A stretch of DNA of 63,285 nt, filler included, from Pseudovirgaria hyperparasitica (taxonomy: Eukaryota): NCBI GenBank assembly GCA_010093815.1. It is 3 parts of 3 records of this genome, joined end to end, with 100 filler letters (N's around TTAATTAATTAA, not from the genome) between each part and the next. Parts side by side here need not be neighbours in the genome. Positions count along the whole stretch, not along the records: positions 23,467 to 44,501 come from ML996584.1; 2 more parts are not named here. The stretch is one strand, 5' to 3'. Both the position numbers and the translations under genes were made by a program. This document shows, piece after piece, positions 3,411-48,599 of the stretch. Below the pieces are notes generated by a model. The model was not told the origin of the DNA. It was given only the letters and a program-made list of their open reading frames with translations, and did not search any database. Numbering within the stretch: position 1 is the stretch's first letter; each line of letters opens with the position of its first letter.

Positions 3411-3570
3411 GAGAGAAATCTAGAACACTCTAAGGGACTAAAACTAGTTAATTTAGGGCGATATAGTAATCTATAGATATTAATTAATAGAGTATACTAA
3501 GTATAATAACTTCTAATATATATATATATATATATATATAGTATATAATATATAATAGTACTAATATATA

Positions 3571-10390: not shown

Positions 10391-13234
10391 AGAGAGGTAA
10401 GGTAGATATACTAAGCTATAAGGCCTCTACTATCTACTCTAACCTTATCTATAACTATACTAACTAATCTATAAGAAGGCGGGGCTAATATATAATAGTA
10501 TACTATACTAAGAAAGATAGAGCGACCCTAGGGTATTCTTAAGGTAGCTACCGCGTAGAGATAGTCGCGCCTTAACACTACTAGTATATAGACTTAAATA
10601 TTCCCTAGTACCTAATAAGGAGCTAATATATACTTATTATTATATAGGCGAATATATAATATAAATAAGAAAACTAGGCTACGCTTCTAGAAGAGATAGA
10701 TACCGCGATAATAGCTATCTAGAAACTATATAAATACTACTAAACTAATAAACTAATAATATATCTAGAATACTATACTATCTACCCCCTAGGCCTAGAT
10801 AGAAGAGTCCTCTTCTATATATATAAATCTATCTCGCTCTTAGAATAGTTCTATAGAGAATAAGATAATCTCTAGATAATACTATACCTCTAGATAGATA
10901 TAGAGCCTCTCTATATCTATAATATCTATAACTAGAGAGAATTACTTATACTAGATACTATACTAGAGGGTATTATAGAACTAGAATAATATATCCTTCT
11001 AGGTAACTTTAACCTCTACTATAGATAGTAGAGAGGTCTAATAGTTATTAGGGAAGAGCTTAGAGTAAGGGAGCTATATATAAGGTACTACGACCTTCTA
11101 TACCTCCTAATACTAGTTAGATAAATTATATAGAGAAAATATAAGAAAGATAAGGAGGGATCTATACTTAACCTTACCCTTACTATAGAATATATAAGCT
11201 ATAGAGTATAATATTACCGCCCGAGTAAGATATAAACGGACTCTAATTATAAATATATAGAGACCGTAATAGATATATCTACGCCTAATAAATAATAGAA
11301 AAGATAACTATAGAAAGATACTAACTAGAAGAAGTATAGGGAGGACCTAGAATCGGCGATTCTAGACCCCTCTATAGTTAATATCTCTAATAGTCTAGCT
11401 ATAGATAGAGCCGTGTAAATTCTTCTTTAAGCCTTCTAAAACTTAAGGAATAAATATATATTATACTAAATATATAAGCCCCTAGATATAAGGAGTATAC
11501 CTTAAATATATAAAAGTAGAAGGGAAGCCTAGAGACTATATACACGTATATACTATATCTAGATAACTAAGGTATAGAAGGAATAGAAAGAGGTAATCTA
11601 ATCTTATAATAGGACCCTCTATAATAAATAATATAAATACTAGTATATAATTACTAATAAATATATATAATAGACTATAGGGCTATAGTATATAGTAAAG
11701 TAGGCTAAGAGCGTGGACGTGCCAACGCTACTACTACTAATACCTCCTCTAATATACTAGGGGATAATATATACTATAAGCCCTAAAAAGATAAAGATTC
11801 TCTAAGAAGTTATATTTCCCTCTCTAGAGCTAGTAGATCTTTTAGATATTAATAATAATATATATCTAGACACGGTTAATATCTCTATAGAGATTATAGA
11901 AGAGAAGATACTTAATACTATTAAAGTACTCCTAAACGATAAAGCGCCTATACTAGATAGAATACTAAATAGATGCCTTAAATATATTATATAGGTAGCC
12001 TTACTACTTATTAGCCTTATCTTCTAGATATATACTAAGAATAGATACTATCTCTAGAGCTTCTAGACTATCTATACTATTATACTTCTAAAACTAGGGA
12101 AGAACTCTAACTCTCTAAAAGAATAGAGGCTAATTACTCTTCTCTTCTATCTTAGTAATATACTTAAGACTATAGTTATAAAGAAGATAAGTACTATAGT
12201 ATAAGAATATAACCTTCTTCTAGTAAACTAGAAGGTAAAAACTAGGAGCTCTCTAATTACTACTATCTAATATATTCTTAAAGTTATCTAGACTATATAG
12301 AAATAGGGACGCGTAGTAATATTACTCTCCCTAGATATAGCCGGTATATTTAATAAGATAAACTATATAAGACTTATCTATAATCTATAGAAGAGATATA
12401 TACCCGAATAGATTATAAGATTTATATAGTCTTTTCTTACTAAAAGAATTATCTAGATATATATCCCTAGATATTAAAGTAAATATAAGAAGATAATATA
12501 TAGTATTCTATAAGGAAGTACTATCTCCCTAATTCTCTTTCTTTTCTTTACTATAGACCTTTTATAGAGGATATAATATATAGAGGTAGTAGGATACGCT
12601 AATAATATATACCTCCTAGCTATTAATAATAATACTAGTTTAACGTATAAACGCCTTATATAAGACTATAAGAGATATATCTAGTAGATAAAGCGCTATA
12701 GAGTAAAGTTCGCCCCTAAGAAATACTAACTTATATACTTTATTAACTACTATAGGAAATAGGCTACTAGGGAAGGAGAGTAATATTCTAGAATAGATAC
12801 TTTTACCGAACCACCGATATAGAGTATATATATACTTAGTATTATAATTAATAATAAACTTAAATACAGCCTATAGATTATATATATAGTATCTAGGGCC
12901 CTTAAGGTAGAAGCCGCTATATACTAGATTACGGCCTCTATATAGAGAACTACCTAGAATAAGGCGCGCTAACTATATATCTCTATAGTACGACCCGCCT
13001 TTATATATAGATATAAGTACTAGTATACGGCCCTTATATAGACTAGATAAATAAAGCTTAAGTCTATATAGAACTATATACTCTACCTTATATCTAGTAT
13101 ATATAAAGCTACTAATATAGTACTACTATAATACGAGATAAATATAATAAGTATATAGAACTACTACTAGATATAGAGGGTAATATACTTTACTAAATAA
13201 TAAGTATAGAAACACGTAGAATATACTAAATATA

Positions 13235-16200
13235 ATAATAATAATAATAATATTATATAACTAGGTAGAGTAGTACTCTATAGGCCTATGCCTTCTCTAG
13301 TCTAAGCCACTATATAAGAAGAAACCCCATAGGGAAAAACTTCCTTATATCTATAACTACATCTCATTAAACCTCTGTTTCGTCTTAAGTATATAGCTAT
13401 AGGGTACGCCTATTAGTCTATAGTCTATATTACCATTATTTTACCCTTAGGTAGTACGTATAGGTGCGGAGGTTATTAGTTAAGGGCTACCCTCGACTAA
13501 TAATTAGGGTTCTCCCGGGGTTCTTCTAGTATATATCGGGTTACTACCGGCGTATGCCGGGTCTCTTCCGGCATATATTTCCGGGTCCACTAGTACTAGA
13601 GGAGTAGTAGATATATAAGCATCTATCGGGAGACGTCCTTAGGGTACTTATTAAGCTATTATATAATATCTAAAGTCTTCGTAACGTAGATAAGCTATTA
13701 CCGTTATATATAGAGGTTAGGGTATATAGCTAGATAGTGGCGTATTATATCTCTCTAGCCGTACGCCTTATACTATAGGGAGGTATCGGGAACGCCTCTC
13801 TTATAGATATAGTATAGGAGTTCTATAGCGCCCGTTCGGGCTAAGATAAGTATAGATACTTAGGCTTTCGTTAGCCCTTTATATATCTATTTACCCGGTT
13901 CCTTCTATGGCCCTCGAATCTACTCTAGATATCTATTCTACTAGAAGGTCTAGTAGGCACGGAGTGCCTCTTTCTACTTATCTTAAGTCCACGACTATAT
14001 ATTTTTCACGAGTTCTTAAAGGCTCTACTAGTCTAGGAGAGCGTCCGGGTTATCTCGGACTTCTTATACTACTTAGCTAGAGTTAGCTTCTATTAAGCAC
14101 CTATACCGTATTCGATTCCGGCCTATATATAGGAGTACGTGGTAATATATACTAATTCGTGCATGTAGCGCGGCGAAAGTATATTCTACGTTTTCTATAC
14201 GTTCCTATACTTATTATTTAGTAAAGTATACTACCCTCTATATCTAGTAGAAGTTATATATACTTATAACGTCTATCTCACGTCGTAGTAGCACCATATT
14301 AGTAGCTTTATATACGCCTAATATAAGACGGAGTATACGGTTCTATATAGATTCGAGCTTTATTCGCCTAGTCTATATAAGGGCCGTATACTAGTACTCG
14401 TGTCCGTACGTGAAGGCGGGTCGTGCTATAGATATATATAGCTAGCATGCCTTATCCCGGGCGGTTCCCCACGTAGAGGCTATAATCCGTTATATAGCGG
14501 CTTCTATCTAGAGGGCCCTAGAGACGGCGTATACTACTTATGGTCCCCATTTAAGCTTGCTATCTAGTATAACTCCGAGCGCGCGCATGCTTTATACTAG
14601 TAGTTCGTTAAATACGTCGATTCGGGGGCGTCGTTCGCCTTCCCTAGTTACCTATTTCCCTTAACGGTTAATGAAGTGTATAAGCTAGTATTTCTCTAGG
14701 GCGAACTTTACTCTATGGCGTTTTACCTACTAGAGGCACCTCTCGTGGTTCTATTCTAGTCGTCTATACGTTCGGTTAGTATTATTATTAATAGCTAGGA
14801 GGTATATATTATCGGCGTATCCGACTACCTCTATATACTTTATTCCTTAAAGAAGGTCTACTATAAAGAAGAGGAATAGAATCGGAGAGATGGTACTCCC
14901 TTATGGGATGCCGCATGCCGTCTCTTTATATTCGCTCTAGTACCTAGAGATATATATCTAAGTTGTTCTTCCTATAAGGAATAACTATATAAAGCGTGTA
15001 ATCTATTCTAGTATTCGTCTTATCCGGAGGTTATAAATAAGTCTTATATGGTTTATCTTATTAAACGCTCCGGCCATATCGAGGGAGAGGAGCGATACTA
15101 CCTATCCCTGTTTCTATACGGCCTGGACGACTTTAATAATATATTAGATAGCTATTATTAGGGAGCTATCTACCTTTGCCTTCTAGTTCGGAGGGAGGAG
15201 ATTATATTCCTATACCGCGGTACTCATCTTCTTTACTACCGTAGCCTCTAGTATCTTGTCTAGGTAGAAGAGAAGGGCGATTAGTCTCTATCCCTTTAGG
15301 GAGTTAGAGCTCTTTCCTAGTTTCGGGAGTATAATAGTATAGGTAACTCGGAAGCTCTAGGGGTAGTACCCCTACGTGACGTATGCTTGGAATATATGAG
15401 TAATAAGTAGTAGGGTCGCTTTTATAGTACTTTTTAGGTATCGATTTAGAATTCCATCTAGTCCGAGTACTTTATCATTTAGAAGTATCTTAATAATATT
15501 AAGTATATCCTCCTCCGTAACTTCTTCGGGGATGTCTACCGCGTATAGATATTCGGCGCCGTGAACGTCTAATAGGTCTACTAGTTCCGGGAGAGGGAAT
15601 ATAGCCTCCCGTAGGGCCTTAGTTTTCTTAAGGCTCGTGGAGTATATTCTCCCCTAATATATTAGGGGAGGCATAAGTAGTAGGGGTATCGGAGTATCTA
15701 CGCCCTTAGCCTATTTCGCTATACGCCATAGCCCTATTACGTATCGTGTCTATTAACTAGTAATTATACGCTACTATTTACGCCTTTCGTTATAGAGGAC
15801 TTTATCGCGTTATTATATCGCTTCCTTCTATTCTTCCTATAACTCGGGTATTCTTATATAGTATACGCGTGTATATAGCCTTCGGGCGTCTTATCTACTT
15901 TCCTATACTCGAGGAATCCCCTTTACTTCCGGGGGCTGGTATATTTAGTATAGGACATGTTTATTTCTCGTATTCTAGTATATTTATAGGAGTGTCTATA
16001 CGGCCTGGTCTATAGCTAGGTTATTAGATATATTAACTATAGAGGGATCTAGGATCGCCGATTCCAGGTCCTTTAGGTACTTTTCCTAGTTGGTGTCCTT
16101 CTATATCTATCGTCTCCGTTATTTATTCGGGGTATATACGTTTATTATGGTTTCCATATATTCGTGGTTAGAATTCGTCTATACCTAGCTTAGGCGGTAG

Positions 16201-18519
16201 TATTAGATCTAGTAACTAATATGCTCCGTGGCGAAGGTAAGGTCAAGCGTAGACCCGTCTTCGTCCTATTTATGTTTTTTCTATATAACTTATTCTATAG
16301 GTATAAGTAGATATAGGAAGTCGTGGTAGCGGGTGCGTAGTTCTCTTACTCTAAGTTCTTCCCTTATTACGGCTAGGCCTCCCTACTATCGGTGGTAGAG
16401 GTTAAAGTCTTCTAGGAGAATATATTACCCTAGTTCCGTGGTACCCTCGAGTATCTCGTCTAGTATAAGTACACGTTATTAGTTATATATATTATATATA
16501 TATAGGGGGCCTATATCTATTTATAGGTGTAGTGTTATTCTAAGGTTATCGCGCTTGGTATACAACCATAATAAGAGTGGTATTAACCTATAAATATAGA
16601 AGAGAACTCGTCTTTCTAGTCCTAGAGGGTATATAGTATAGTATCCGGGGTGTGTAGTTAGTTTACTCGTCTAGTAGTATTTATAGGGTTCCTAGATAGC
16701 GAGTATTATAGCCCCGGTCTCTTCGAGGAGCGTCGCCTAGTTCTCTCTTTTATATTATATATTTACCTATATAATTTAGAGTATATTCTAGTCCCTTATT
16801 AGGTACTAGAGAGTATATATACCTATATACTTATTCCTTAGAGGCGCGACTATCCTCGCGCGGTAGCGGCTTTAACTATGCCTTTTAGTCGTCCTATCGT
16901 CTTCGGGATAGTCTACTATCCTACCTAACTACCTTCTAGAGGGGAGGTTAGGGGTATTATAAAGGAAGGGCCCGTGGTAGATATTATATTCTATAACTAT
17001 CTCGCGCCTCTCGCTTTTATCGTACGAATATATTCTATAACCTATTTATATTTTATGCACGTTAACGACTACGACGGGTATTTCCCGTCGTAGTTTAAAT
17101 ACTATACTATGTCTCTATTTCTTAGTCCGTCTCCTTGCGGTTTATAAGGGTACTTCTAGGTAGCGTGGTCCCTACGGCACTATCCGCACTTAGTCTTCTA
17201 TAAGTACCTTTATATAGTATATCTATACCCTTAACAGTTAAAGCACTATATTATTACCTATGCTCTATCCTATGGCTCGGCTATAAGGAGCTCTCCTTCT
17301 ACTAGGAATCCCTTCTATATAATATATTATATAAGGGCGGGGTCTCGGAGCTCTATAATTATAGTAGAGTGTTTTTTCGCCGTCGTCTTAATCGCCTATA
17401 GGTTCTTCTACCACGCTTTCACGATCTTAATCCCTAGGTATTTTCGCGTGTTGGATTATTCTATGCGCGTAATATCCTCCGCTCCGATAGCCTATCCCTA
17501 CACGGGTACTACGTGTACTATAATCGGGTATATAGCTACCCTAATAGACACGCTAGGGAAGATACTACCTATCGCGTTCGGATCTTACGAGATGTTTTAC
17601 TACGTAGTATTCGTTATAGTAGTAAGTACTACCCTACCTAGCGTAACTTTAGTAGCCACGACGCTCGACCACATTTCTTTCTACTTATTAATCTTATTTA
17701 TAATTTCCTTTAGGGATGCCTATTAGACCTACGCCAGCGTGTCCTTATCCTAGATTACGACCCGTATACTATATACTCTATCTATAGTCCTAGTAGTCCT
17801 TAGTACGGTGGCTCCGGGTATTACTATAATCTAAGCCTACGTATTAGGGCGCTTATCTTAGGATAGCTCTTTCTAGATTCTCCGTAGGCTGGCTTCTATT
17901 CGGTTGAGTCTACTACTAGGTTCCTCTCGTAGTAACTTCCTTTCTTCCTCTATAATTCCTCTTAGGTTCTAGATAAGGTCCCGGAATATATAAAGGAGGG
18001 TCTTCTTTCCCTTCTCGGCGTCCCTCTCTATATATATTATCTAGTATTTAATTTTATCTAGAAGGGTCTCCCCTCTCAGGGTCCCCTTAGTCTAGGTTAT
18101 CTATAGCGCTTTATACCCTTAGTTAGTTCCTATATTTTAGATAGGTATCTAGCTATCTATATTAATATTGCTATATAGCCGTTTCTACCGTACTAGTAGG
18201 GGTATATCCGGCGTCTACCGGGGTATTACGATACCTAAGGCTGCCATGGTTATTAGTTAAGGGTAGCCCTTAACTAATAAAAGGGGGTCAGCGTGTCGGC
18301 GTTTATTAGATATAGTCTATACTTATGTTATCGAAGAGTCTTTGAGCGTATATATATAGTATCTCTATATATTAGTATCGTCGTGTATTATACGCTATAT
18401 ATACACACGTATGTCGGAGGTTGTTATACTCGGTATACTCTATCGTTTAATGTATGTAAATCGCTGTTTTACCCCGAATTAACTAGTTTAGTCTATTAGG
18501 GTATAAGAAGTTTTTTATC
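13235..18519 (-). mobile_element. LINE-3: full-length Tad1-like LINE nested in ORF2 of LINE-2
   Basis: Tail at 13235, 5' end GGGTATAAGAAGTTTT at ~18500-18516, 13-bp TSD TATACTAAATATA at 13222-13234 and 18520-18532. Confidence 0.92.
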
Positions 18520-23366: not shown

Positions 23367-23466
23367 NNNNNNNNNNNNNNNNNNNNNNNNNNNNNNNNNN
23401 NNNNNNNNNNTTAATTAATTAANNNNNNNNNNNNNNNNNNNNNNNNNNNNNNNNNNNNNNNNNNNN
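23367..23466. other. Artificial contig linker (N run + TTAATTAATTAA + N run)
   Basis: Exactly 100 nt with a six-frame stop cassette; repeated at 44502-44601. Confidence 0.97.
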
Positions 23467-23561
23467 CCTAACCCTAACCCTAACCCTAACCCTAACCCTA
23501 ACCCTAACCCTAACCCTAACCCTAACCCTAACCCTAACCCTAACCCTAACCCTAACCCTAA
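23467..23561 (+). repeat. Telomere (CCCTAA)n, about 16 units, at the start of contig 2
   Basis: Perfect CCCTAA array at a contig terminus, in the orientation of a left chromosome end. Confidence 0.97.
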
Positions 23562-24088
23562 ATCGCGACCGTTTATTCGCTTATAAAAAAGGATCACTTA
23601 TACGCGGTTATATACTGCGGTACGGCTTCGGCCCTTTAGCGCCTAGGACGTAGCCCGGCCATCGGCGTCGGTGCTATTTAGGCACCGCTGCCCGAGGCAT
23701 GCGCGCGCCGCGCTATAGTAGCGCTCGGTATTTTAAACGTGCCGATGCCGATAGGGTAGGCCCTAGTACGTTACCGTACGGCCCGTGGTGTGTGCTTTGC
23801 GCGTAAGCCTACATCCTTAGACGGAAAAATGTGACATGCCAGCATTCATAGCGATTCTCGGCCAGAACGTGACTAGGTGACTATAGAATAATTTAGAATG
23901 ACTACGCATTCCGATCGGAGGTCGGTATTATAACCGACCGACACTTTCACCTATAAAAGAATAATAAATCTTAGTCCCTAATGAGCCTTTAAGGCGAAAG
24001 GCATCTGTCGGTTTACACCTAGCTATCTAGGACTCCTGTTACTCATCACTTTTCCTCGACGATTTCTTCCTGCTTAAAGTAACCCTAA
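23562..24088 (+). mobile_element. Telomere-attached segment ending in TAACCCTAA; putative 3' end of a telomere-targeting (Penelope-like) retroelement
   Basis: Bounded by the telomere and by TAACCCTAA (24080-24088). Contains a hammerhead fold. Less RIP-affected than its neighbours. Confidence 0.5.
23959..24044 (+). ncRNA. Type I hammerhead ribozyme (RIP-damaged)
   Basis: Stem I AGTCC (23973-77)/GGACT (24030-34). Core CTAATGA (23978-84; CUGAUGA with one TG>TA change). Stem II GCCT/AGGC. GAAA (23996-99). Stem III AGGCA/TATCT. CUA cleavage triplet ending at 24029. Distal stem I GAATAATA/TGTTACTC. Confidence 0.78.
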
Positions 24089-24438
24089 TACGGCCGCCTT
24101 ACCAAAAGTAATATATAGCTCTACTACTATTATATAGTACGATATAATAACCGTAAATCTAAGACCTAACCGAGCCCGGTTATTATTATATAAAACACTA
24201 AGCCGGTCTCTAAGATAACCCTAGAGAATAAGGGTATGTTATAGACTTCGGCTTTACCTCGTCTCTAGTATTATATAACGGAGCCGGGACGGATAGAGAC
24301 TAGTATAGGGGTATCACGTGACCTCGCTTAAGACTATACTTAAGCTATAACCTATACGAGCTACCCCTACTCTCTCTAAGTTAAATTATAATATATCTTA
24401 ATTACTATTATAGTAATACCTTAGTTATATCTATTATA
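24088..24438 (+). mobile_element. Truncated 3' end of gypsy family C (150 nt of 3' region + LTR 24237-24438)
   Basis: Reverse complement of 36408-36757; homology stops abruptly at the TAACCCTAA junction. Confidence 0.9.
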
Positions 24439-27400
24439 CTAAAACCGATTTAGTAATAGATCTTATAGGATATTATAAGGTTATTACTATACCTTAAACT
24501 TAAAACTATAAGGATTATATTATAGATCTCTCTATTAATTAATATAGTAAGATATAAGGACTAACTTATATAAATAACCTAAAGTTACTTACTATACCTA
24601 TAGTAGAATAGAATATATAGTACCTAAGTACCGTTTAGAGAAACTACCAAGTACTAATATAACTAATTAATTAGTTATATATTATAAGTACTAGTAGCTA
24701 GAATATATCACGCCTAACTATCTAGTATAGAATATAAAAAACTAATAATCTATAAGAAACCCTTATAACTTATAGGCGCGACTATAATAGAGGGGTAACT
24801 AGTTAAATAGTATATTAAACTATAGGCTAGACCTATTAAGGTCCCTTATAGATAATACTAGACTATAATACTTAATAGTAGTTTAGCTACTAATATTATA
24901 TTAATCTAATAAGTATAAGAACTTAACGTTAATATCTAAGCTCTAATAGATACTATATTCTATAGTATTAACGGTCCTATTAAGTTATACGATATCTATA
25001 CTATTAAATATAGCGTCTAGAATAGTGGAGGGAAATAGAAACCCTATTACTCTATCTTTATCGTGGTAGATAGCCCCTTTAATATAATTCTAGGTATACT
25101 ATAGCTTAAAAAATATAACCTAAAACTAGACTTTATTAAGAAAATAGCTAACTAGTATATAAACCTACCTTAATAGGAACTAGTATAGCTTATTAATAAT
25201 AAATAGTTCTAGAAAGATTATAAGAAGGCGATCTCTACTATCTATATACTCTTACTTATCTAAAATAGTAAGCTTAGTATTAAAATAGACGAAAACCTAC
25301 TATACTAGTATAAAATATACTAATATATTATATTAGTGATTAATTCCTCTAAATTACCTTAATATTAATCTACTAACCTTACTATTAATCTCGAAGATAG
25401 CTAATAACCTCTATATAGATCTATTTACCCTCTTTTAGAATCTAAATTATAAGTTCTTTAGAAATATATTAAAAAGAACCTTATATAAGAATAGATTAGA
25501 TCTAGTATATCTCTAGTCGGAGCTCTAATCCTCTTTATAAAGAAGAAGGATAGAAGCCTCTATCTATATATTAACTACTATAGCCTAAATAATATTATAC
25601 AAAAGAACCGTTACCTACTACCTCTTATCTCTAAGTCTATTAATAGACTAGGATATATAAAGACCTTTACTAAGCTTAATCTACGTAATATCTACTATCG
25701 CCTTTATATTAAGGAGGGCGATAAATAGAAAACGGCCTTTAGGACCCGTTATAGATACTTTAAGTATATAGTAGTTCCTTTTAGACTAACTAACGCGCTA
25801 GGTACCTTCTAAGTATATATTAATAATATACTAGTAGGGCTACTTAATATAATATATATTATATACCTAGATAATATTCTTATCTTCTTAGATAATAAGA
25901 AGAAGTATATCTAGTATATATATATAGTTCTAGATAGACTAGAAAAGTATAAGCTATATATTAAGCTATCTAAATACGAGTTCTATTAGGACTATATTAA
26001 CTTTCTTAGCTTTATTATTACTAATTAAGGTATAACTATAGAGAGAGATAGAGTTACTACTATTATAGACTAGCCTAAACTAAAATCTATTTAAGATATA
26101 CGTGTCTTTATTAGCTTCGCTAACTACTATTAAAAGTTTATTAAATACTTCTCCCGTTTAGCTATACCTTTTAATATATATACTACTACTACTAATTCGT
26201 CTATTACGGTCCATGGTAGATAGAAATAGTATAATATTAAATTATAGTCTATTAAATTAATAGAGATTAAAAGAGCGTTCTTCGAGAAGATTAAAGAGAT
26301 ATTTATAACTACTCTACTACTAGTATACTTTAATCTAACTAAATCTATTCACGTTAAAACTAATATATTAGAATTTATAATCTTAGGTATACTCTTCTAG
26401 CCTAGACTAACTAAGTCTAAAAAGATCTAGTAGTATCTAGTTATATTCTTCTCGTGTAAGATAGCCGATATTAAGACTAGATATACTATTTATAACTAAG
26501 AGCTACTAGTAATAGTAGAGTTATTTAAGTAGTAGCGATATTATCTTAAAGGTACTATATATAATATTAAGTTACTAACTAATTACTATAACTTAAAGGG
26601 GTTTATAAGTATAATAGTTTTAAATTATTAATAGATTTAATAGGCTAAGTAGCTTATAAATTTCTACTTTATAATCTACTATTAACCTAGAAGTATAAAT
26701 CTAGCTAATAGAATATTAAGAAGACCTAACTATAAAGAAGGCGCCTAGAATTATAGTAGCTATAGGGTTCTAGAGTAGCTATAGACCTAACTCTTAAGGA
26801 CGAGGTTAGATAATATATTATCTAATAATTAGTAAGATACTAACGCTAATACTAGTAATTAAATTTATAAGACTAAAGCTAGTAACTAAAGACGTAGTAC
26901 CAAAGTCTCTAGCGAGCTATTTATTAGCGCTATTAGAGAGGGCGATAGTACCTAGTATATATATTAAGTAGACCTCGCCTAGTTAATCGTAGATCTATAG
27001 AAAATAGATCTAATAGTTTTAAAGTTATATAAAATATAGTAAAATAGATTATTACGGACCGAAGTAGACTATAAGTAGACCTTTATAGACGGCTTACTTT
27101 ACTATAATAGAAAGTATTATATACTAATAGGTAATACATGATTTACTATAGTTAGCTAATACTATAACACTAACCTAGTAGGGTATTTCGGGTATATATA
27201 TACCCTAAGCTTAATTTATTAGTACTACTTTTAGGAAGATATACCTAAGTACGTTAAAGAATAGATAGCTACTTATCTAATTTATTAAAGAACGAAGGCA
27301 TCTAGGTATAAGCTATATAGAAATTTATAGCCTCTACTAGTCCCCCTCTTTATATAGAAAGATATTACTATAGATTTTATAGTTAACTTACCTCTAAGTA

Positions 27401-29039: not shown

Positions 29040-32000
29040 CTATATAGAAAAGCTAGAGCTATAGAGCTACTCCTCTATCTTATTATTACTTTTAGAGTAT
29101 AGTAAATAAACTAGCTAAGTAATAGAGTAGTATAGATTAGATATCTTATCCTCTAGAGTAGCTACTTAATTAACTAGAGTCTAGTAAGAGAAGGACTACG
29201 CGCTAGAATAGAGTAACTAGATCTAAAGTTAGCTAATATAATCTAGAATAATCTAAAATAGAATATATACTCTCTTATAAGATAACTTAGAGGGAGAACT
29301 AGTAGATCTCTTATAAGATCTATTAGTAGTATAAGGTAGACGGAAAGAGATACCCTAAATCTCTTCTATAGCCTTAGTAGTTAAAACTAACTCCCTAGAG
29401 TAGGTAGTCTAGATACTAGGGATCTTATAATAACTAAAAAATATAAGCTAAGGCTAGAAGTAACTAATAGTTTCTAAACTTATACTTTAATAATCTCTAG
29501 AAAGAGCTTATAGCGCTCTCTAAATTCTTTATATATAGAGGGTAAGTAACTACTAAGACTACTAAGGGTCTTATAGACGCGAAGGCTATTATATATATTC
29601 TATATATAAATAGAAACCTAAAAACGTATTAGTATAGATAACTTTAGATTATCTAAGACTAAAATAGTCTAATAGACTTATCTAAAGATAAGCCTTACTA
29701 AAGATAGTATAATAATAATAATAATATTAGTAAACTAGGTAGAGTACCACTCTATAGGTGCATGCCTCCTCTAGTCTAAGCTACTATATAAGAAGAAACC
29801 TACGAATAGGAAAAACTCCCTTATATCCATAACTACGCTCTGTCTATCCTCTCGTTCTTTATATATATATAGCCCTAGGGGCTACCCATAGGCCTATAGC
29901 CTATGTTATAATGGTTTGCCCTTAGGTAGCACGTGTAGATGCGGAGATTATTAGTTAAGGGCTGCCCTTAACTAATAATCGCGGTTCTCCCGGGGTTCTT
30001 CCGACGTATACCGGGGTTCTTCCGGCATATATTAGGCTTCTTCTAGCATATATACGCGGGTCTACTAGAACTAGGGGAGAGGAAGGTATGCGAGCATCTA
30101 TCGGGCGACGTCCTTAGGGTACTTATTAAGCCATCGCGTAATGTCGGAGGTCCTCGTTATACGGACGAGGGCTTGTCTTAGGGTATAGAGGCTAGAGCAC
30201 GTCGCGAGGTAGTAGCGTATTATGCCTCTCCGGCCGTAGTCCTCGTACTAGGGAGATACATCTAGGACGCCTCTCTAGTAGAGGTAATGTAGGAGACCTA
30301 TGGCGCCTGTTCGGGCTTAGAGGAGTATAGATGCTTAGGCCTTCGTTAGCCCTTTATATATCTATTTACTCGGTTCCTTCTAAGGCCCTCGGATCTATTC
30401 TAGATATCTATCCTATTAGGAGGCCCACTAGGCTTTAAGTACCTTCCTCTATTTATTCTAGATTCACGACCGCATGACGCGGCTAAGCTCCTTAGAGCTC
30501 TATTAGCTCGGGACGGCATCTAGGTTATTTCGAACCTCCTACACGGTCTAGCTTAAGTCCGCCTCTATATGGTATTTATATTATACTCGAGTTTATCCTA
30601 TAGTAGGGAGGGCCTAGTAATGCGCGCGGATACGTATACATAGTACGGCGAAGGTATATACCCTATCTCCTCCACGTTCTTATACTTATTATTTAGTAAA
30701 GTATATAAGTCTCTATATCTAGTAGAAGTCCTATATACTCGTTACGTTTATCTCGCGTCGGAGGAGCGTCGTGTTAGTAGCTTTATATACGCCGGAGATA
30801 AGGCGGAGTATACGGTTTTATATAGACTTAAGCTTTGCCCGCCAAGCTTGTATAAGGGCCGTGTACTAGTACTCGTGTCCGTATATAAAGGCTAGGCGTG
30901 CTAGGGAGACGTATAGCTGTCTCGCCTTATCCCGGGCTATTCCCCACGTGGATACCGTAATCCGGTATATAGTAGTTTCTATCTAGAGGGCTCTGGAGAC
31001 GGCGTGTGCCACCTATAGTCTCTATTTTAGCTTATTATCGATTATGACGCCGAGTGCGCGTATGCTCTATGCTAGTAGTTCTATAAAGGCGTCGATTTAG
31101 GGGCGACGTGCCCCCTCCCTAGTAGCCTATCCTCTATAGCAGTTAATAAAGTATATAAGCTAGTATTTTTTAGGTGCGAATTTTGCTCCGTGGCGCTTTA
31201 CCTACTAGACGCATTTCTCGTGGTCTCGTTCGAGTCGTATGCATGTTCTACTAGTACTACTATCGACCGCGAGGAGGTATGTATCGTCCGCGTATCCGAC
31301 TACCTCTATGTATTCTATTCTCTAAAGGAGGTCTACTATAAAGAAGAGGAAGAGGATCGGGGAGATGGTACTCCCTTACGGGATGCCGTATACCGTCTCC
31401 TTATATTCGCTTCGGTATCCGGGGATATATATTTAAGTAGTCCTTTACGCGAGGAAGGACTATATAAATCATGTAATCTACTTAGGTATTCGCCTTATCC
31501 GGAGGTTGTGGATAAGTCTTATATGGTTTACCTTATTAAACGCCTCTACTATGTCTAGGGAGAGTAGCGTAACGACTCGTCCTTATTTCTATGTAGTCTA
31601 GATAACCTCGAGAATATGTTAAATAGCTGTGATTAGGGAGCTTCCTATCTTCGCCTTCTGGTTTGCTAGGAGAAGGCCGTGTACCTATACTACTATACTT
31701 ATCTTCTTAGTAATCGTGGCTTCTAGTACCTTACCAAGGTAGGAGAGGAGGGCGATTGGCCTCCATCCCTTCGGCGTGTTTAGGCTCTTCCCTAGTTTTA
31801 GGAGTATAACCGTGTATACGGTTCGGAAGCTCTATAGGTGGTATCCTATACGGGCGTACGCTCGGAATATATGGCCTATAATCGGTAAGGTCGCCTATAT
31901 AGTCCTCTTAAGGCATCGATTCGGAATTCTATCTAGCCCGGGCGCTTTATCGTTCGGGAGTGTCTTAATGGCGCCAAGTATATCGTCGTCCGTGATTTCC

Positions 32001-35000
32001 CTAGGGATACTCACGGCTTCCGGGTATTCCGTGCCGTCGATATCTAATAGATCTACGGGTTCTAGGAGAGGGAACATAACCTCTTATAGGATCTCTATTT
32101 TCTCGAGGCTCGTAGAGTACGTCTTTTCTTAATGTATAAGGGGAGGTATAAGTGGTGTAGGTGTCGGGGAGGCGGTGCTTTTGGCCCATTTTACCATATA
32201 CCATAGTCTAGTAGTATTACGTGTGTGTCTGTCCGTGACTATACGCTACTATTTACGTCGCTCGTTACGGAGGACCTTATCTCGTTATCTTCTCGCCTCT
32301 CTCTATTTATTCTATGCTTTAGGTGTACGGTTATAGTATACGCGTATATATAATCTCCGGACTTCTCGCCTATGCTCTCGCACTTAAGGTATGCTTTTTA
32401 GGTCTAGGGGTCTATATATTCGGTACGGCACGTGTTTATCTCTTGCTCCCTAGTACGCCTATAGGAGTATATTCACGGCCTAGTCGATGGCCGGGCCATT
32501 AGATACATTAACTATAGACGGGTCTAGGATCGTCGATTCCAGGTCCTTTAGGTACTTTTCCTAGTTAGTGTCCTTCTATAGCTATTGCCCTCGTTAGTCT
32601 TAAGGGGTAGATACGTCTATTACGGTCTCTATATATTCGTGGTCGGAGTCTATCTATATAAGGCTTAGGCGGTAGTATTAAGTCCTATTATAAATGTGTC
32701 TAGTGGCTAGGGTAAGGTCGAGTATAGATCCGCCCTTATCTTATTTATGTTTTCGCTAGGTAATCTATTCTACTAGTATAAGAAGGTATAGAAAGTAGTA
32801 GTATTAGGTGCGTAGTTCTCTAGCTCGAAGCTCTTCGCGGGTGACGGTTAGTCCACCCTACTAGCTATAATAGAGGTTAAAGTCTCCTAGGAGGATGTGT
32901 TATCCTAGCTCGGTAGTACCCTTAAGTATATTATCCGCCTAAAGTAATCGGTTCTAATTATATATGTTATATATATAGAGGGGTCCGATATTTATCTAGA
33001 GGTGTAGTGTTATCCAGAGGTTATCCCGTTTAGTATATAACTATAATAAGAGTAGAATAGACTTATGGACATGGAAGAGGACTCTCCTCTCCGGTCCTAG
33101 GGGGTGTATTATATAATATTCTAGGTGTGTTATTGGTTTGTTCGTCTAGTAGTGTTTATATAGCTCCTATATAGCGAGTATTATAGCTCCGGTCTCCTCG
33201 AGGAGTATCGCCTAGTTCTTATGTTTATACTATACGTTTGCCTATATAATTAGGAGTGTATCTTAGTCTCTTATTAGGTGCTAGGGAATGTATAGGCCTG
33301 TATATTCGTTCCTCTAAGACGCGACTATCCTCGTGCGGCGGCGGCCTTAGTAATTCCTCGGGGCCGTCCTATTATTAGCTTTCTCGGGACGGTTTACCAT
33401 TCCTAACCGCTTCCTCGTAAGGAGGTAGTCTATAGTAGTAGTGTTATAGTAAAGAGAGGAACGGTAGTAGGTCGCATCGTTTATAGCTACCTTGCTCCCT
33501 TTATCCGGATTAAGTAGATATATTTAGTAACCTATTTGCGTTTCGCGCACGTAGCCGACTACGACGGGTGCTTACCGTCGTAGTTAGAGTACTTCGCCGT
33601 GTCCCTATCCCTCTAGCCCTCTCCTCGTGTCCTATAGGGGCACTTCTAGGTACTATGTTCTTATCGACACTACCTACACCTAGTCTTTTAGAAGTACCGC
33701 TATACCGTATACCCGTATCTCTAATAGTTAAAGCACTATATTATCGCCTATACTCTATTCTATAGTTCCGCTATAAGAAGCTCCCCTTCCGCTAGGAATC
33801 CCTCTTACGTAATTTAATACGCGAGGGCGGGGTCCTTAAGCTCCACTATTATAGTAGAGTATGCCTTCGATCTGGTTTTAATCCCTTATATATTCTTCCA
33901 CCATACTCTTACGATCTTAATCTCTAGGTATTTTCGCTCGTTTAACTATTCTATCCGCGTGATATTCTCTTCTCCGATAACCTATCCGCTTACGGGCATA
34001 GAGTATATCTATATCGGGTATGTGGCCGCCCTAATAGAGGCGCCTAGAAAGATACTACTAATCGCGTTCGGATCGCGTAAGATAGTCTACTACGCGATAT
34101 TCGTTGTCGTAGTAAGTACTACTCCTCCTAGCGTAAGTTTGGCAGCGACGACGTTTAACTACATTCCCTTTTATTCGTTAATCTTACTTACTATGTCCTT
34201 TAGGGATACTTACTAGACCTATACTAGGGTGTCCTTATCCTAGATTACGACGCGTATACTATACGCCGCGTCGCCGGTCCGGGGGGCCCGTGGTATAGCC
34301 TCTAGTATTACTACTATTTATGCCTATATGCTAGGGCGCTTACCTTAAGTAAGTTCCTCCTGGATTCTACGTAGGCTAGCCTCCATTCGGTCGAGCCTAC
34401 CCTCCGGTCCTCCTAGTTATATCTTCTTCTCCTCCTCCGTAATTCCCTTTAGGTTCCGGATAAGGTCCTAGAATACATGTAGGAGAGTCTTCTAGCCCTC
34501 TCCGGCTTCCTTCTCTACACGTACTACCTGGTAGTCGATACAATCTAGGAGGGTTTCCCCTCTCGGGGTCCCCTTTATTCCGTCTATCTATGGCGGCGTG
34601 CGCCTTTAGGTATGTTCTACGTTTTGGATAGGTATATAGCTGCCCTCGGTAATGTCGCTATATGGCCTTTTCTATCGTACCGGTAGGGGTATATCTAGTA
34701 TATACCGGGGTATGTCGGTGCCTAAGGCCGCCATATTTATTAGTCAAGGGCTACCCTTAACTAATAAAAAGGGGGTCGGTATATTAGCGTTCTAGTAGCG
34801 TAGTCCGTGCCTCTGTCTCCGTGAGGATTTTAAGAGGGTATATATATATCTTTATACGGCGATAACGTCTTGGTTTCGACGCTACACGTACGTGCGTATA
34901 GTAGTAGTTGGTGTACTCGGTGTACTCTATCGATTAAGGTGTGTATCTCGCTGTATTACCCCAAATGGACTAAGTTAGCCTCTTAGGGATGTAAAAGAAG

Positions 35001-35683
35001 TTTTGTAGACTAAAGATAGTATAGTAATAGTAGTAAGTAGATAGCTTAAAGACTAGATATATAGGCCTATTACGGTTAGTAGAGTAGTAGCTAATACTAG
35101 AGTTAGAGTAGAAGAGATATTTAGAGCCGGCCGTATAGCTCTTAATATACTTAAAGTATATTAAACTATAGTTCGCTATTTTTCTATAGTATAAACTATA
35201 ACTACGTTTAGTATCTTTAGTAATCTAGACCTTATTATTAGAAGGGCTAGACTTAGAGTAAATAGTAAGGTTCTAGAAGAACCTAGAGTAACTAAATTAG
35301 TCTATATTAGACTAAAGAGAGAGACGGCGTTTAGAGTAGGGCGGCGAGAGTATAGGCTCTTAATTATTATCTATAATAAGATCTTCTTTATCCTCTAAAG
35401 AAGGTAAAGTAGATAGATAGTATAAGAAAGTATAAGTAGACTTTATAGCCGCTTCTTCTATAACGCTAGTACTAGAATTATCTAGATTAGAGCGACTAGT
35501 AGCTATATTAGTAGTAATAGTAGTAGTAGCCTTAGCTACCCTTCTCTATAACTTAGTATACTCCTTTATACTACTATAATAAGTAGTCTTCTTAGCCGGT
35601 ATAGATAGAGTAGAGGTAACCCCTTTAGAGTAAGTCTTATAAGAAGAGAAGATAGACTTAGAAATAGAACTAGTATTAGATAT
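29040..35683 (-). pseudogene. Gypsy-B antisense spliced accessory gene (Zn2Cys6-like motif, C-terminal coiled-coil), split by LINE-4
   Basis: Exons 35683-35009 + 29696-29682, 29617-29484, 29433-29271, 29216 to about 29040 (end uncertain). Introns of 64, 50 and 54 nt with (R)CTAAY-type branch sites and TAG acceptors, all phases consistent. Extra 5' UTR intron GTAAGT 35869-35684. Confidence 0.72.
29712..35008 (-). mobile_element. LINE-4: full-length Tad1-like LINE (more GC-rich, divergent subfamily)
   Basis: 15-bp TSD ACTAAAGATAGTATA at 29697-29711 and 35009-35023. ORF-track 31895-32077 gives KAPGLDRIPN (LINE RT N-terminus). GYADD at ~31225-31240 (minus). Confidence 0.93.
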
Positions 35684-36769
35684 CTATATATATATATTAG
35701 CTAGAGATCTAAGAATAAAATATTTATCCCTTAAGAGTAATTAGAAAAGCTAAATTAGTAACTATAATAACGCGAATAGATTATATAAGACTAGTTCTAA
35801 TAAGAATAGACTACTCTAAACCCGAATAGACCTAAACTAGAGAAGATAGTATAGAAATTAATAACTTACCTTAAGAGTAAGGTAGATATACTAAAGAAAA
35901 AAATTTAGAATAAGAGAACTAAATATAAGCTTAGTTAATATAGTAGTTATATAACTATAGAGCTATCTCTAAGGTAGTAGCTAGAAAGTAAGAGATAAGC
36001 GTATATATAAGTTAATAAAAGTAAACTAGAGACTTAAGTTTACTAAGGTAAAGGCTATTAATAATATTATAAAGATTTAATTAGATATATATATAAATAT
36101 AATACTTATAAGATTATAGATTTATATATAGTTAAGTACTTTAGAGCGAAGTATAAAAAGAAGAAGAATATTATTAGAATAGATACTAGAATAGACTTAA
36201 CTAGACTACTATAGTCTAGTATAGTCCTATAATAGATAGACCTAGGTTAAGTTAGCTAGATTAAGCGAAACTACTATATAAGTAGACTATATATACTTAA
36301 TTCCTACTCTTTAGGAATTAACCTTATTATAAGAGTAGACTATCCTTTTAAATATATTTCTAAATCCTTCTATAATCTATTAGACTACTATCTTATATCT
36401 ATATTCCTATAATAGATGTGACTAAGGTGTTACTATAATAGTAATTAGAATATATTATAATTTAACTTAGAGAGAGTAGGGGTGGCTCGTATAGGTTATA
36501 GCTTAAGTATAGTCTTAAGCGAGATCACGTGATACCCCTATACTAGTCTCTATCCGTCCCGGCTCCGTTATATAACGCTAGAGATAAGGTAAAGCCGAAG
36601 TCCATAATATACTCTTATTCTCTAGGGTTATCTTAGGGACCGGCTTAGTATTTCATATAATAATAACCGGCTCGGTTAGGTCTTAGGTTTACGGTCTTTA
36701 TATCGTACTATATAATAGTAGTAGGGCTATATATTACGTCCGGTAAGATGGCCGTATCCTATAGTCGTG

Positions 36770-37150
36770 TCTCGGTCGTGTAATAGAGGAGGGTTCCTCT
36801 ATAACGGCGTCGTTAGTCATATAATCGCACGGTAGTAGCACCTCGTGGTTACGTCCTAGCGGTTACGTGGTAGAGGAAGGTTCCTTATATTATAGCGTCG
36901 TTAGTTATATAATCGCATGGTAGTAGTATCTCGTAGTTATATTCTAGCGGTCACGTAGCGGAGAAGGGTTCCTTACCTTACGGCGTCGTTAGTCATGTAA
37001 TCGCACTATAGTAGTATCTTATAGTTGCGTCCTAGCGGTCACGTAGCGAAGGTAGATTCCTTATACTACGGCGTTATTAGTTATATAATTACACGGTAGT
37101 AGCATCTTATAGTCGCGTTCTAGCGGTCACGTAGCGGAGGTAGGGTATCC
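36770..37150. repeat. Tandem array of about 4.3 x 87-88 bp inside gypsy C
   Basis: TTCC anchor recurs at 36794, 36881, 36969 and 37057, with CGGCGTCGTTAGTCAT and AGCGGTCACGTAGCGG motifs. Confidence 0.92.
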
Positions 37151-37155
37151 TACGC

Positions 37156-37303
37156 ACGAACCGCGCGTCTTATTTATTATTATCTATTTTAGAACCGGTT
37201 CTTCTCCGGGCCAGGGGTTAGATAGTAGTAGTAGGGTAGCTTACGTACGACCCGCGTTTATTATTATTATTATCTATTTTAGAACCGGCTCTACCCCGGC
37301 CCA
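37156..37303. repeat. Two copies of a ~58-bp repeat (period ~90) in gypsy C
   Basis: ACGA.CCGCG...TTATTATCTATTTTAGAACCGG at ~37156 and ~37247. Confidence 0.8.
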
Positions 37304-37424
37304 CACGATTTTCCCCAATACGAGTATATAGGTTCTACGTCTAGCGACTTTCTTCTTCTTTAACTACTATTATACCTACTATCTCGATACCGCGTAGTAG
37401 CTACTACGATATTAGTAAACTCGT

Positions 37425-39000
37425 ATACCACCTCGTAGCTTCTATACTATTATTATAAGCGCGCTAGGCCTAAATAGGCCCATTATAGAAGCCGGCGCCG
37501 TCTTAGCGGTGGCTATAGATGCTAGGGGTTAAGACCCTAATAATCGACGCGCGCCTAGGCGCTAGGAACCGCCTAACCGCACCGTGAGTAGGTCCTATCC
37601 CTATACCGTTCCTTATACTAACTAGGTAGATTATTCCTCCTACCGTCTCCCGATAGGCTAAGCCTATTTACTATATAGAGCTATATATTATAGAGGGTAA
37701 CTCGTTAGAAAACGAGCGTACCAAGTCCGTATACTTCGTATATTATATATATATAAAGGCCCTAGAGAAGACTAGGGTACTTAAGTACGTGCCGTCTCTA
37801 CACTATGGTAGCGCCTACTAATCTAGAGCGTAGCTATAAGCCTAGCCGTAGTACTAACTATATAAAGTACTATACGTCGAAAGGGATCTACTTATAGGAT
37901 ACTAAGGAGCTCGCTATGTACCCGGCCCTACGTAAGGCGTAGAGCCGCCTTAAGAAGTTCGTGCACGAGTTAGTTAATAATAACTTTAGTTATATAATAG
38001 ACCGTGGTAGTCGCGGCCTAGACCCGACTAAGCCTTCATCCGGTAAGTAGCCGTGTATAAACTCTAAGTTCTACCGTCTATACGAGGACTATAAGTCTAA
38101 CTTAGAGATTATATATATCGTCCGCCGTAACGCTAGCATCGTTAGTTAGATCCCTATAACGCCTAATCGCGGTGCTATCACGGTAATTAAGACGCTATAT
38201 CGTGGTAGTAGTAACCGTAGGTAGCTTAGTAGTGTAATTCACTAGATGAATTAGTATATATCGTATAACGAGGCCTAAATAGGCGAGTTACGCACTAACA
38301 TCGGCGCCCTATAGATATATACTTAGTTAGCCTAATTACTACTATCTTAACACGTAACGTAGGGTTCGATATAGTAGGTCGCTTCCGGCCTAGCACGCCT
38401 AGCCGAGCCGCCGCCTTACTAACTCCTTATCTAGGCGGTTATAGAGGAGGAGGAGCCTCGTTTAAGTAGTAGTCGCCCGCGCCGTCCTTAGCTAAGCGGC
38501 CCTAAGGAGTCGCCCACCCGTAGCCCGCGCTATTACTATACTACCCCCCGCCGGCTCCCTATTACTCCCCCCCCGTAGGAGGCCTTACCGTTACCACGCC
38601 GTCTCTATACCCCGCCCCGCCGCTATAACCTATCCCGGCGCCGCTCTCGCTCGCCGGAGCGCCGTAGCCGGTCCCCCGACCGCCGCGACCGGTCCCCTTA
38701 CCGCTATAACTAGTCCCCCCGCTACTATAACCATTCCTATAAGCGTTACCGCCGATCCCGTAACCGCCGGCGTCATACTATTAAGGGTCGTCGCTTATTA
38801 TATTATTACCGGTCGCCGTCTCGTAGCCGCTATAGCCGCCCTAATAAGGTATATAACTCCCTCTCGCCGCTAAGCTAGATTAATAGTCGCCCCCGCTACT
38901 AGGAGCCGGCCTAGGGGAGAACTAGATAACTAACCTTATAGTTAGGATTTATAGTTAAGGACCGTGCCGGCCCCGGCGCCGTATAGACCTAGGGTAGAGC
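37425..39000 (+). pseudogene. Gypsy-C antisense spliced accessory gene (Zn2Cys6-like motif + Arg/Ser-Pro-rich tail)
   Basis: ATA(ATG)-PPR start. Exons 37425-37583, 37630-37784 and 37834 to about 39000. Introns GTGAGT..TACTAAC..TAG and GTACGT..TACTAAT..TAG, phases consistent. RRSRSPERRSRSPDRRDRSP at ~38636-38700. Confidence 0.8.

Positions 39001-44406: not shown

Positions 44407-44501
<95 letters not shown>
44407..44501. repeat. (ATT)n microsatellite at the contig end
   Basis: About 95 nt of perfect ATT running into the gap. Confidence 0.9.
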
Positions 44502-44601
44502 NNNNNNNNNNNNNNNNNNNNNNNNNNNNNNNNNNNNNNNNNNNNTTAATTAATTAANNNNNNNNNNNNNNNNNNNNNNNNNNNNNNNNNNNNNNNNNNN
44601 N
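44502..44601. other. Artificial contig linker
   Basis: 100 nt of N with central TTAATTAATTAA. Confidence 0.97.
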
Positions 44602-47950: not shown

Positions 47951-48059
47951 AGCTTCTAAGAGACTAGATAGCATAGTAGTATAAATACGAACCGCTATTT
48001 ACTCGTGATTATATGTCTATATATATCTATACGTAAAGAGAAATAAGATATTTATTCTA

Positions 48060-48382
48060 TACCGTTATATAGTAGGACGTTACTATATATGCCGGTATAT
48101 AATAGAATATTCCGACATGCGCTAGTATATTATAGGATATTCCTAGATACTCGAAGTATAGTTATAGTATAAAGTAGTATTACTATTATATACCGGCATA
48201 TAGTAGGACGTTACTATATATGCCGGTATATAACGGGATCATGTTCCGACATACTATACGCCGCTAGTATATTATAGAATATTCCTAGATACTTAAAGTA
48301 TAGTTATAATATAAAGTAGTATCGCTATACTATGCCGGTATTTAGTAGAACGTTACTATATATACCGGTATATAACGGGATT
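48060..48382. repeat. Tandem repeat, about 2.3 x 130-140 bp
   Basis: TAGTAGGACGTTACTATATATGCCGGTATATAA recurs at ~48070, ~48201 and ~48342. Confidence 0.88.
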
Positions 48383-48419
48383 AAACGTTTTCTTAACGTT
48401 CGATAGAACGATTCTAAAA

Positions 48420-48545: not shown

Positions 48546-48599
48546 GAAGCATTAGGAGCGCCGTATCTTTCCTAATGTAATATAATATATAAATAAGTA

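Follow-up and report, generated by a model that had tools for sequence, protein, structure and literature searches.

A hammerhead-bearing segment at a chromosome end of Pseudovirgaria hyperparasitica: probable remnant of a Coprina-like Penelope-like retroelement

A segment between telomere repeats and a Ty3/gypsy element

The stretch of DNA analysed here, hereafter the window, comprises 63,285 nucleotides (nt) from the ascomycete Pseudovirgaria hyperparasitica. At 23467-24088 it holds terminal telomere repeats followed by a short segment with a hammerhead ribozyme fold, for which a first-pass annotation had proposed an origin from a telomere-targeting Penelope-like element (PLE). The window is made up of three contigs (1-23366, 23467-44501 and 44602-63285), whose joints are spacers of the form N44-TTAATTAATTAA-N44 at 23367-23466 and 44502-44601, and no inference is valid across either joint. 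The middle contig is opened by CCTAA(CCCTAA)15 at 23467-23561. The motif CCCTAACCCTAA has 15 matches window-wide, 14 of them inside this tract, and a count of 15 was reached by none of 100 shuffles. The terminal repeats, about 16 in number, directly abut at the very start of the contig a segment of 518 nt (23562-24079), which is followed by TAACCCTAA at 24080-24088, as had been described before. We infer that the contig start is a true chromosome end. By blastn the segment 23562-24088 is single-copy in the window, and no host gene was seen in the middle contig.

The features of the locus are given below. Related elements, which are described in the next section, carry two short telomere-like stretches named T1 and T2, and RIP stands for repeat-induced point mutation, ORF for open reading frame, RT for reverse transcriptase and LTR for long terminal repeat.

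23467..23561, + strand: terminal telomere tract CCTAA(CCCTAA)15, which holds the place of the short telomere-like stretch T1 of related elements
23562..23972, + strand: leader of 411 nt, with a higher GC content than its surroundings and moderate RIP effects
23952-23959, + strand: TATA-like box TATAAAAG, within the leader
23973..24034, + strand: type-I hammerhead with large helix III; helix I at 23973-77/24030-34 (AGUCC/GGACU)
23978-84, + strand: hammerhead core CUAAUGA, with A at position 5
23985-95, + strand: hammerhead helix II, 4 bp
23996-99, + strand: hammerhead GAAA, present
24000-27, + strand: hammerhead helix III, 28 nt, long and imperfect
24028-29, + strand: U16.1-A17, with predicted cleavage after 24029
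24042..24049, + strand: CTCATCAC, complement of the hammerhead core CUGAUGAG, conserved as CTCATCAG in the relatives L002 and L003
24080..24088, + strand: TAACCCTAA, or T2, the short reverse-complement telomeric stretch that closes the module; in the relatives the RT ORF begins about 20 nt later
24089..24440, + strand: 5′ LTR, starting at its natural terminus, of the RIP-mutated Ty3/gypsy that extends from 24089 to about 29700

The hammerhead and its reverse transcriptase-bearing relatives

The hammerhead-like fold at 23973-24034 ends 54 nt before 24088. Both strands of the window were scanned with a relaxed descriptor that tolerated at most one core mismatch, and this fold was the sole match; such a motif is, by itself, suggestive and not proven. 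Its core, CUAAUGA, departs from the consensus CUGANGA at one essential position, and the GAAA and the U-A are intact. The earlier description of a hammerhead about 50 nt before the end of the segment stands as regards fold and position, with the correction that A replaces G5 in the core. The fold is also degraded, with an energy of -9.4 kcal/mol against -13.8 for the minimum, which makes it 4.4 kcal/mol worse than the minimum-energy fold. The unconstrained minimum-energy fold of 23955-24050 is not more stable than that of shuffled sequences (z 0.27). No second hammerhead was found in the window by the covariance model described below (next best 10.2 bits, E 1.6).

Relatives of this hammerhead were recovered from metagenome contigs, which were scanned with an IUPAC pattern that kept the core and helix II fixed and left the four RIP-susceptible letters open. 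Three contigs were obtained, L001, L002 and L003; the canonical-core pattern had no match in viral contigs. In blastn comparisons with the window, L002 showed 82.7% identity over 81 columns (E 5e-18), L003 78.5% (E 1.6e-11) and L001 86.4% over 44 columns, the identities of the three thus ranging from 78 to 86% and the E-values from 5e-18 to 7e-10. All three contigs carry the full core, CUGAUGA with CCUUCAAGG, where the window has instead CUAAUGA with CCUUUAAGG. The departures of the window at these two places are TpG-to-TpA or CpA-to-TpA changes, as expected from RIP, and one of them breaks a helix III pair. Across the hammerhead region the window and L002 differ at 13 positions; six of these are transitions with A or T in the window against G or C in the relative, five of the six being in a CpA/TpG context.

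In L003 the hammerhead is the minimum-energy fold (-15.0), and in L002 it lies within 1.3 kcal/mol of the minimum (-17.9 against -19.2). When the window and L002 were used to build a covariance model, L003 was recovered at 61 bits (E 7.5e-17); for L001, which is truncated, the score was 44-51 bits. In the model-guided alignment of the four sequences 95.6% of 68 cells pair, in comparison with 20-50% in slid-partner controls, and compensatory two-sided changes were observed at four pairs, every one in helix III. Rfam, applied to the whole of L001-L003, reported no hammerhead at E<=1. Because Rfam misses these canonical-core relatives too, a hammerhead in the window is not contradicted by the lack of an Rfam match there, and the Rfam hammerhead models appear not to cover this variant. 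On these sequence comparisons, the hammerhead in the window is judged to be real and homologous to the canonical-core hammerheads of RT-bearing relatives. The window ribozyme carries a mutation of G5 and is probably dead; it is therefore filed here as a mutated derivative, not as an active ribozyme.

The surroundings of the hammerhead are organised alike in the window and in the relatives. In L003 the order is T1 (ATTCCTAACCCTAACCCCTAACC), a leader of about 425 nt, the hammerhead, about 52 nt, T2 (CCTAACCCTAAC), 20 nt and the ATG of a 1024-aa ORF. In L002 an 802-aa ORF comes first; some 290 nt separate it from T1, and a further 370 nt or so separate T1 from the hammerhead. After another 57 nt or so come T2 (TTAACCCTAACC) and the start of the next ORF (258+ aa). 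L001 independently links the end of an ORF, the 3′ untranslated region (3′UTR), T1, leader and hammerhead. The module of the window (telomere, 411 nt, hammerhead, 45 nt and TAACCCTAA) matches the relatives in order, strand, T2 distance and flanking repeats. Its TAACCCTAA at 24080-24088 is on the same strand as the hammerhead, with the telomere on the 5′ side, a layout identical in L002 and L003. When the module was aligned with those of the relatives, nothing was found beyond the hammerhead, CTCATCA(G/C)TT and the closing TAACCCTAA.

The ORFs of the relatives encode an RT. RVT_1 was the sole Pfam family in all three of the proteins scanned at E<=10, and no endonuclease (EN), integrase or RNase H family was found in these proteins even at that threshold. 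The ORF ends about 230 aa past YIDD. In 32 of 32 aligned homologues TDKNLG is invariant, about 70 residues upstream of IPKVHK, and YIDD is present. The precomputed families of this RT are PF26215 (HTH_animal) and PF28514 (DUF8422), and the nearest ESM Atlas clusters that carry them are commonest in Basidiomycota, Rotifera and Arthropoda. By using an AlphaFold model (mean predicted local distance difference test, pLDDT, 74.8) in Foldseek, ranks 1-6 were all occupied by telomerase catalytic subunits, ahead of the G2L4, retron and LINE-1 RTs. Two RT lineages with this module share only 54% protein identity. Among the matches listed, the RT homologues with names are all from ascomycetes (Diaporthe, Beauveria, Pochonia, Cordyceps, Metarhizium and Pyricularia). 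The DKN motif, the RT domain and the thumb are described as typical of PLEs in the available text of PMC13159263.

Further copies were found in the same organism. Contigs of four coded public runs were aligned to 23540-25200; X1 and X2 share a sample, and X3 and X4 derive from a second one that bears the same species label. One run contig matches the region exactly. A second copy (X2 record 9, 3340 nt, which equals X1 record 2, 2325 nt) matches 23545-23984 with 49-50 differences, mostly transitions. It has the same 5′ border beside a short telomere-like stretch and more sequence distally, extending past the telomere-repeat side by 2.9 kb in X2 record 9 and by 1.9 kb in X1 record 2. Likened by layout alone, this distal extension is the arrangement of ORF, 3′UTR, T1 and leader of L001 and L002. 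A third variant (X1 record 3, X2 record 10) covers 23570-23872. X1 records 4 and 5 match until 24087 and then continue with unlike sequence, and X3 record 17 matches 23998-24088 with four differences and goes on with CCTAACCC and then AT-rich unrelated sequence. Across the two samples the contigs thus hold at least three sequence variants for the 5′ part, with additional ones for the 3′ part, and three records stop matching at 24087/24088. In the 3′ part of the module the summed word depth is about 3-5 fold that of the 5′ part; this measure is not copy number and was not used as evidence. Copies at other telomeres had been predicted to share the 3′ junction and to vary in 5′ truncation. The first prediction agrees with the border at 24087/24088, which is common to copies in different contexts, and the second does not, as the copies share one 5′ border beside telomere repeats.

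The relatives' element probably belongs to the EN-minus PLEs of the Coprina/Athena type, whose published signature it shows (PMC8557442): its RT lacks an EN and carries the DKN motif, its non-coding flank holds a hammerhead, and its telomeric stretches are short and C-rich. The segment in the window is, probably, a RIP-decayed remnant, devoid of an ORF, of such a telomere-attached, EN-deficient, Coprina-like PLE. Its 518 nt and closing TAACCCTAA would be the non-coding leader (pseudo-LTR) module of the element, with the sense strand reading away from the telomere. The RIP indices of the segment are moderate ((CpA+TpG)/(ApC+GpT) 0.64; TpA/ApT 1.43), and the present copy is probably inert. In the available text of PMC8557442, EN-minus PLEs attach to exposed G-rich overhangs via reverse-complement telomeric repeats, and the hammerhead adjoins these near the 3′ end. 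The orientation and the junctions seen here fit such published elements (PMC8557442, PMC13159263), in agreement with the first-pass annotation. Its assignment to the PLE class gains support from the homology of the hammerhead to those located directly upstream of EN-free RTs with DKN, PF26215, PF28514 and a telomerase fold.

Several points weigh against this assignment. At the level of the motif, at least one match of equal stringency occurred in 7 of 100 block-shuffled windows (mean 0.07), so that a descriptor match alone is not rare. No Rfam hammerhead was found in 23467-26000 or 23900-24100 at E<=10, where only chance microRNA and snoRNA matches appeared, and L003:590-700 gave only partial, sub-threshold Rfam matches (Hammerhead_3, 17.4 bits; gathering score 48.5). 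The homology to the relatives is confined to 23973-24052, about 80 nt; the leaders are unalignable, no sequence similarity having been detected between the leader of the window and those of L002 and L003. The covariation sample is small: half of its four sequences served to build the model, and the pattern by which they were all recruited had the core and helix II fixed. For the RT, the lead of telomerase in Foldseek is only about tenfold in E-value and the template modelling (TM) scores are low (0.24-0.43). Searches of solved structures by sequence, with a single protein and with a 32-sequence profile, returned generic RTs (DRT1, G2L4, retron) and no telomerase. The earlier remark that no RT is visible here remains valid: with the relatives' ORFs as tblastn queries, no RT of their family was detected in the window (best E 2.1), and Pfam searches of 47 ORFs of at least 70 aa returned LTR-retrotransposon fragments only. 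The link between module and RT therefore comes from relatives in other organisms and would hold for the window by homology. Finally, the 5′ border shared by the copies could stem from duplication of a whole chromosome end.

Proposed origin and rival explanations

On the preferred reading, reverse transcription with the telomeric G-overhang as primer would have joined the module to the chromosome end. The hammerhead of an intact element would cut unit-length RNA from tandem or read-through transcripts, C-rich T1 or T2 would anneal to the G-overhang and prime cDNA synthesis, and synthesis reaching T1 would leave a G-rich end that telomerase could extend. The 5′ border common to copies at telomere repeats would then be explained, as we infer, by the end of synthesis at T1. 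A copy without ORF could have arisen in two ways, either by priming at T2 and copying through the hammerhead and leader to T1, or by loss of the ORF after a gypsy insertion at T2.

Two groups of observations touch the template of this process. The stretch CTCATCA(G/C) is conserved about 10 nt beyond helix I in the window, L002 and L003, and was paired with the core over 7 bp by RNAalifold, which prefers this downstream complement as the partner of the catalytic core. The downstream stretch (CUCAUCAG) is thus a possible alternative pairing that would mask the core, as a switch between cleaving and non-cleaving states. Exact identical ends of 123 nt are present in L002 (1-123 = 3875-3997) and L003 (1-123 = 3892-4014), with units of 3874 and 3891 nt, and L001 (reverse complement, 1-704) independently spans the end-to-start junction of L003. 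The longest contig measures 3.4-4.4 kb in about 95 of 120 RT homologues among the matches listed, as counted by eye. Identical ends of 123 nt are what a de Bruijn assembly with k=123 leaves, and the end-redundant contigs of unit length point to tandem arrays or circular, possibly RNA, templates.

From the identical ends, the L001 junction, the contigs of 3.4-4.4 kb and the 5′ border shared at telomere repeats, a more detailed model can be drawn, which is offered as a speculation and is itself unlikely. In this model the template would be a hammerhead-delimited RNA of unit length, maybe circular, with T1 and T2 both primable by the G-overhang; cDNA synthesis would stop on reaching T1 and thereby supply a seed for a telomere, priming at T2 would yield leader-only caps like the one at this locus, and the core complement would decide whether the RNA is cleaved or read through.

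The second way of losing the ORF involves the neighbouring retrotransposon. Repeat homology begins at 24088/24089 by blastn, where 24088-24438 corresponds to 36757-36408 on the minus strand (92.3%) and 24228-24442 to 44388-44174 on the minus strand (91.6%), which confirms that the gypsy homology starts exactly at the telomere-like repeat. From 24089 to about 29700 on the plus strand, read-through translation revealed RVT_1, RNase H and Tf2-type SH3 domains, by which the element is recognised as Ty3/gypsy; a second copy of the same family lies at 36408-44388 on the minus strand. The LTR copy at 36757 begins at the identical base (TACGGCC...) to the copy at 24089. Position 24089 is therefore a natural LTR terminus and not a break point, and the description of the gypsy as broken at this junction has to be dropped. 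This LTR does not belong to the PLE; it records an insertion that came later, at the proximal junction. In the gypsy elements the RIP index (CpA+TpG)/(ApC+GpT) is extreme, at 0.07-0.12.

A full element, with leader, T2, ORF, 3′UTR and T1, may have stood here once, a gypsy having inserted at the T2/ORF border and a later rearrangement among the nested transposons having removed the ORF. The segment would then be what is left of a truncated full copy, as opposed to a leader-only insertion. Such a history is possible, though somewhat unlikely. It would account for the gypsy LTR, whose natural terminus directly follows T2, as an insertion would, at a place where the ORF of the relatives begins only about 20 nt further on. 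The gypsy has no 3′ LTR in the plus orientation and abuts a long interspersed nuclear element (LINE) at about 29700, which shows that the region has been rearranged. A comparable case is known on Ascochyta lentis chromosome 23, where a Coprina copy is truncated beside a Ty3/gypsy (PMC13159263), a likeness to the present locus. However, no trace of the RT ORF was found in the 21-kb contig, although the RIP-mutated gypsy and LINE RTs there are detectable, and in the other sample the T2 border is followed by a telomere-like repeat and AT-rich sequence that, by eye, is unlike the ORF starts of L002 and L003.

It has also to be considered that the module is a non-autonomous, retrozyme-like element, that is, a hammerhead RNA with a telomere-complementary end that a PLE RT copies in trans. 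Telomere-like repeats bound the module on both sides in the window, L002 and L003; the organism has at least two copies with a common 5′ border beside telomere repeats, the alignment of a third begins at 23570, and several contigs cease to match at the 3′ border. The rise in summed word depth toward the 3′ part would go in the same direction, with the limit on its meaning given above, and non-coding hammerhead elements dependent on PLEs have been proposed for animals (bioRxiv 10.64898/2026.07.22.740005, from the available text). Nevertheless, the module occupies the same place in two RT lineages that share only 54% protein identity, with the ATG about 20 nt after T2, and for this reason it looks like the own 5′ leader and promoter region of the element; a solo module was not seen in the contigs of the relatives. 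An independent retrozyme is thus improbable.

Ordinary duplicated subtelomeric sequence, in which a hammerhead-like motif and TAACCCTAA would stand together by chance, could draw on the silence of Rfam, the core mismatch, the 7 of 100 shuffled windows with an equal motif and the frequency of subtelomere duplication between chromosome ends. It is very improbable, being largely refuted by homology (an 80-nt match to PLE-borne hammerheads), by the covariance score of 61 bits and by the compensatory changes, and the module has the same strand, T2 distance and flanking repeats as in PLE elements. Least probable of all is a fragment of a MoTeR-like, CRE/SLACS-type non-LTR retrotransposon in telomere repeats, which would suit the location, the fixed orientation, the short internal telomere-like stretches, the hints of array-like copies in run contigs and the one homologue of the relatives' RT from a Pyricularia species. 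Against it, no endonuclease family was found in the hammerhead-linked RT, which ends about 230 aa past YIDD and for which telomerases rank as nearer folds than R2 and LINE-1; hammerheads are, besides, a feature of PLEs (PMC4209133, PMC8557442).

Known telomere-associated elements and minor observations

According to the published descriptions available, telomere-attaching EN-minus PLEs are already known in ascomycetes, and large-helix-III PLE hammerheads are known in fungi too. In Ascochyta lentis, Coprina-1_Alen was described at 13 chromosome ends, where telomeric repeats flank it on either side and its ORFs point toward the centromere (PMC13159263). It resembles the present case in being an EN-minus PLE of an ascomycete, placed at the very chromosome end between telomeric repeats, with its sense strand toward the centromere. 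It differs, as compared by description, in its size of about 4.5 kb, its two ORFs and its direct repeats R1 (63 bp) and R2 (255 bp), whereas the window holds 518 non-coding nt. The relatives found here in turn have one ORF, no internal direct repeats and two telomere-like stretches per unit. In the two supplements of PMC13159263 that were searched, Coprina, the core motifs and telomere repeats had no occurrence. A telomere-associated PLE of Tuber melanosporum is cited in the same paper. Another example is RPP_Circe, a telomere-associated PLE of the RIP-affected ascomycete Leptosphaeria maculans, with its AT-rich transposon mosaics (Rouxel et al. 2011, PMC3105345, available text). In the literature searched, no ascomycete telomere-associated PLE was found beyond those of L. 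maculans, A. lentis and T. melanosporum.

The hammerheads of fungal and protist telomere-associated PLEs have been described as type I with a large helix III (Cervera and de la Pena 2014, PMC4209133). The hammerhead of the window is like them in both respects, in the lack of obvious loop-loop contacts and in its position in a PLE flanking repeat, and differs by the A at core position 5 and the broken helix III pair. No mention of a conserved downstream complement of the core was found in the available text of PMC4209133. The hammerhead type of the window may already be depicted in figure 3B of PMC4209133 or in supplementary file S2 of PMC8557442. Athena and the Terminons of bdelloid rotifers are likewise EN-minus, attach to G-overhangs via short reverse-complement repeats beside a hammerhead and form telomeric chains, but they have another telomere repeat, an animal host, units that are far larger and more complex, and hammerheads whose helix III is small and palindromic (PMC8557442, available text).

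MoTeR1 and MoTeR2 of Magnaporthe oryzae share with the window the insertion into telomere repeats, and differ in that the RT linked to the window's hammerhead is PLE-like. MoTeRs are retroelements of telomere repeats that lie in one orientation, in arrays separated by short telomere tracts, and encode a non-LTR, CRE-like RT with a restriction-like endonuclease. We know of no hammerhead in MoTeRs.

Three features of the ascomycete lineage, mostly outside the window, may be new, namely the unit anatomy with two stretches (T1/T2), the complement of the core that is conserved beyond the cleavage site and the end-redundant contigs of unit length. EN-free, telomere-attaching PLEs are the closest transposon relatives of telomerase, and they offer a natural model for the capping of chromosome ends by retroelements. 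To this the window adds a case in which RIP, a fungal genome defence, has struck a ribozyme core. It also led to a widespread ascomycete PLE lineage with two internal telomere-like stretches around a hammerhead-bearing leader, whose T1/T2 anatomy suggests a testable route by which telomere additions could be made, both full and leader-only. When genomes are annotated, a short block that carries a hammerhead and lies between the telomere and the first transposon of the subtelomere should be counted as a PLE remnant.

Within the leader, the distal 281 nt (23562-23842) have a GC content of 0.555 and 34 CpG, far above all surroundings, and include a run of GCGCGCGCCGCGC. A TATA-like box lies 13-20 nt upstream of hammerhead helix I, as TATAAAAG in the window and as TATATAAC in L003 (about 583-590). 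If this box were a promoter, the transcript start would fall within or after the ribozyme.

In the other two contigs short interstitial telomere-like stretches are present at 49481-49494 (CCCCTAACCCTAAC), 51319-51327 (TTAGGGTTA) and 419-427 (TAACCCTAA), in AT-rich, RIP-mutated surroundings. Beside them no homology to the hammerhead or the module was found by blastn, by recoded alignment or by the covariance model. One candidate for a hidden, RIP-mutated copy of the module reached 84 in a purine/pyrimidine-recoded alignment, against a null maximum of 77 in 10 shuffles, and was rejected because its alignment was gappy and did not end at TTAGGGTTA at 51319.

The telomere-bearing contig ends, right after a truncated gypsy LTR, in a long TAA/TTA trinucleotide run (about 44400-44501), which is probably the reason why the assembly stopped there. 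The LINE next to the first gypsy, at 29700-35400 on the minus strand, encodes Exo_endo_phos_2 and RVT_1. Its family has at least three copies in the window (29700-35400 on the minus strand, 13224-17497 and 3567-7818 on the plus strand), with about 73% mutual identity and partial copies elsewhere, and it is far less RIP-depleted (index 0.34, GC 0.44) than the adjacent gypsy elements (0.07-0.12).

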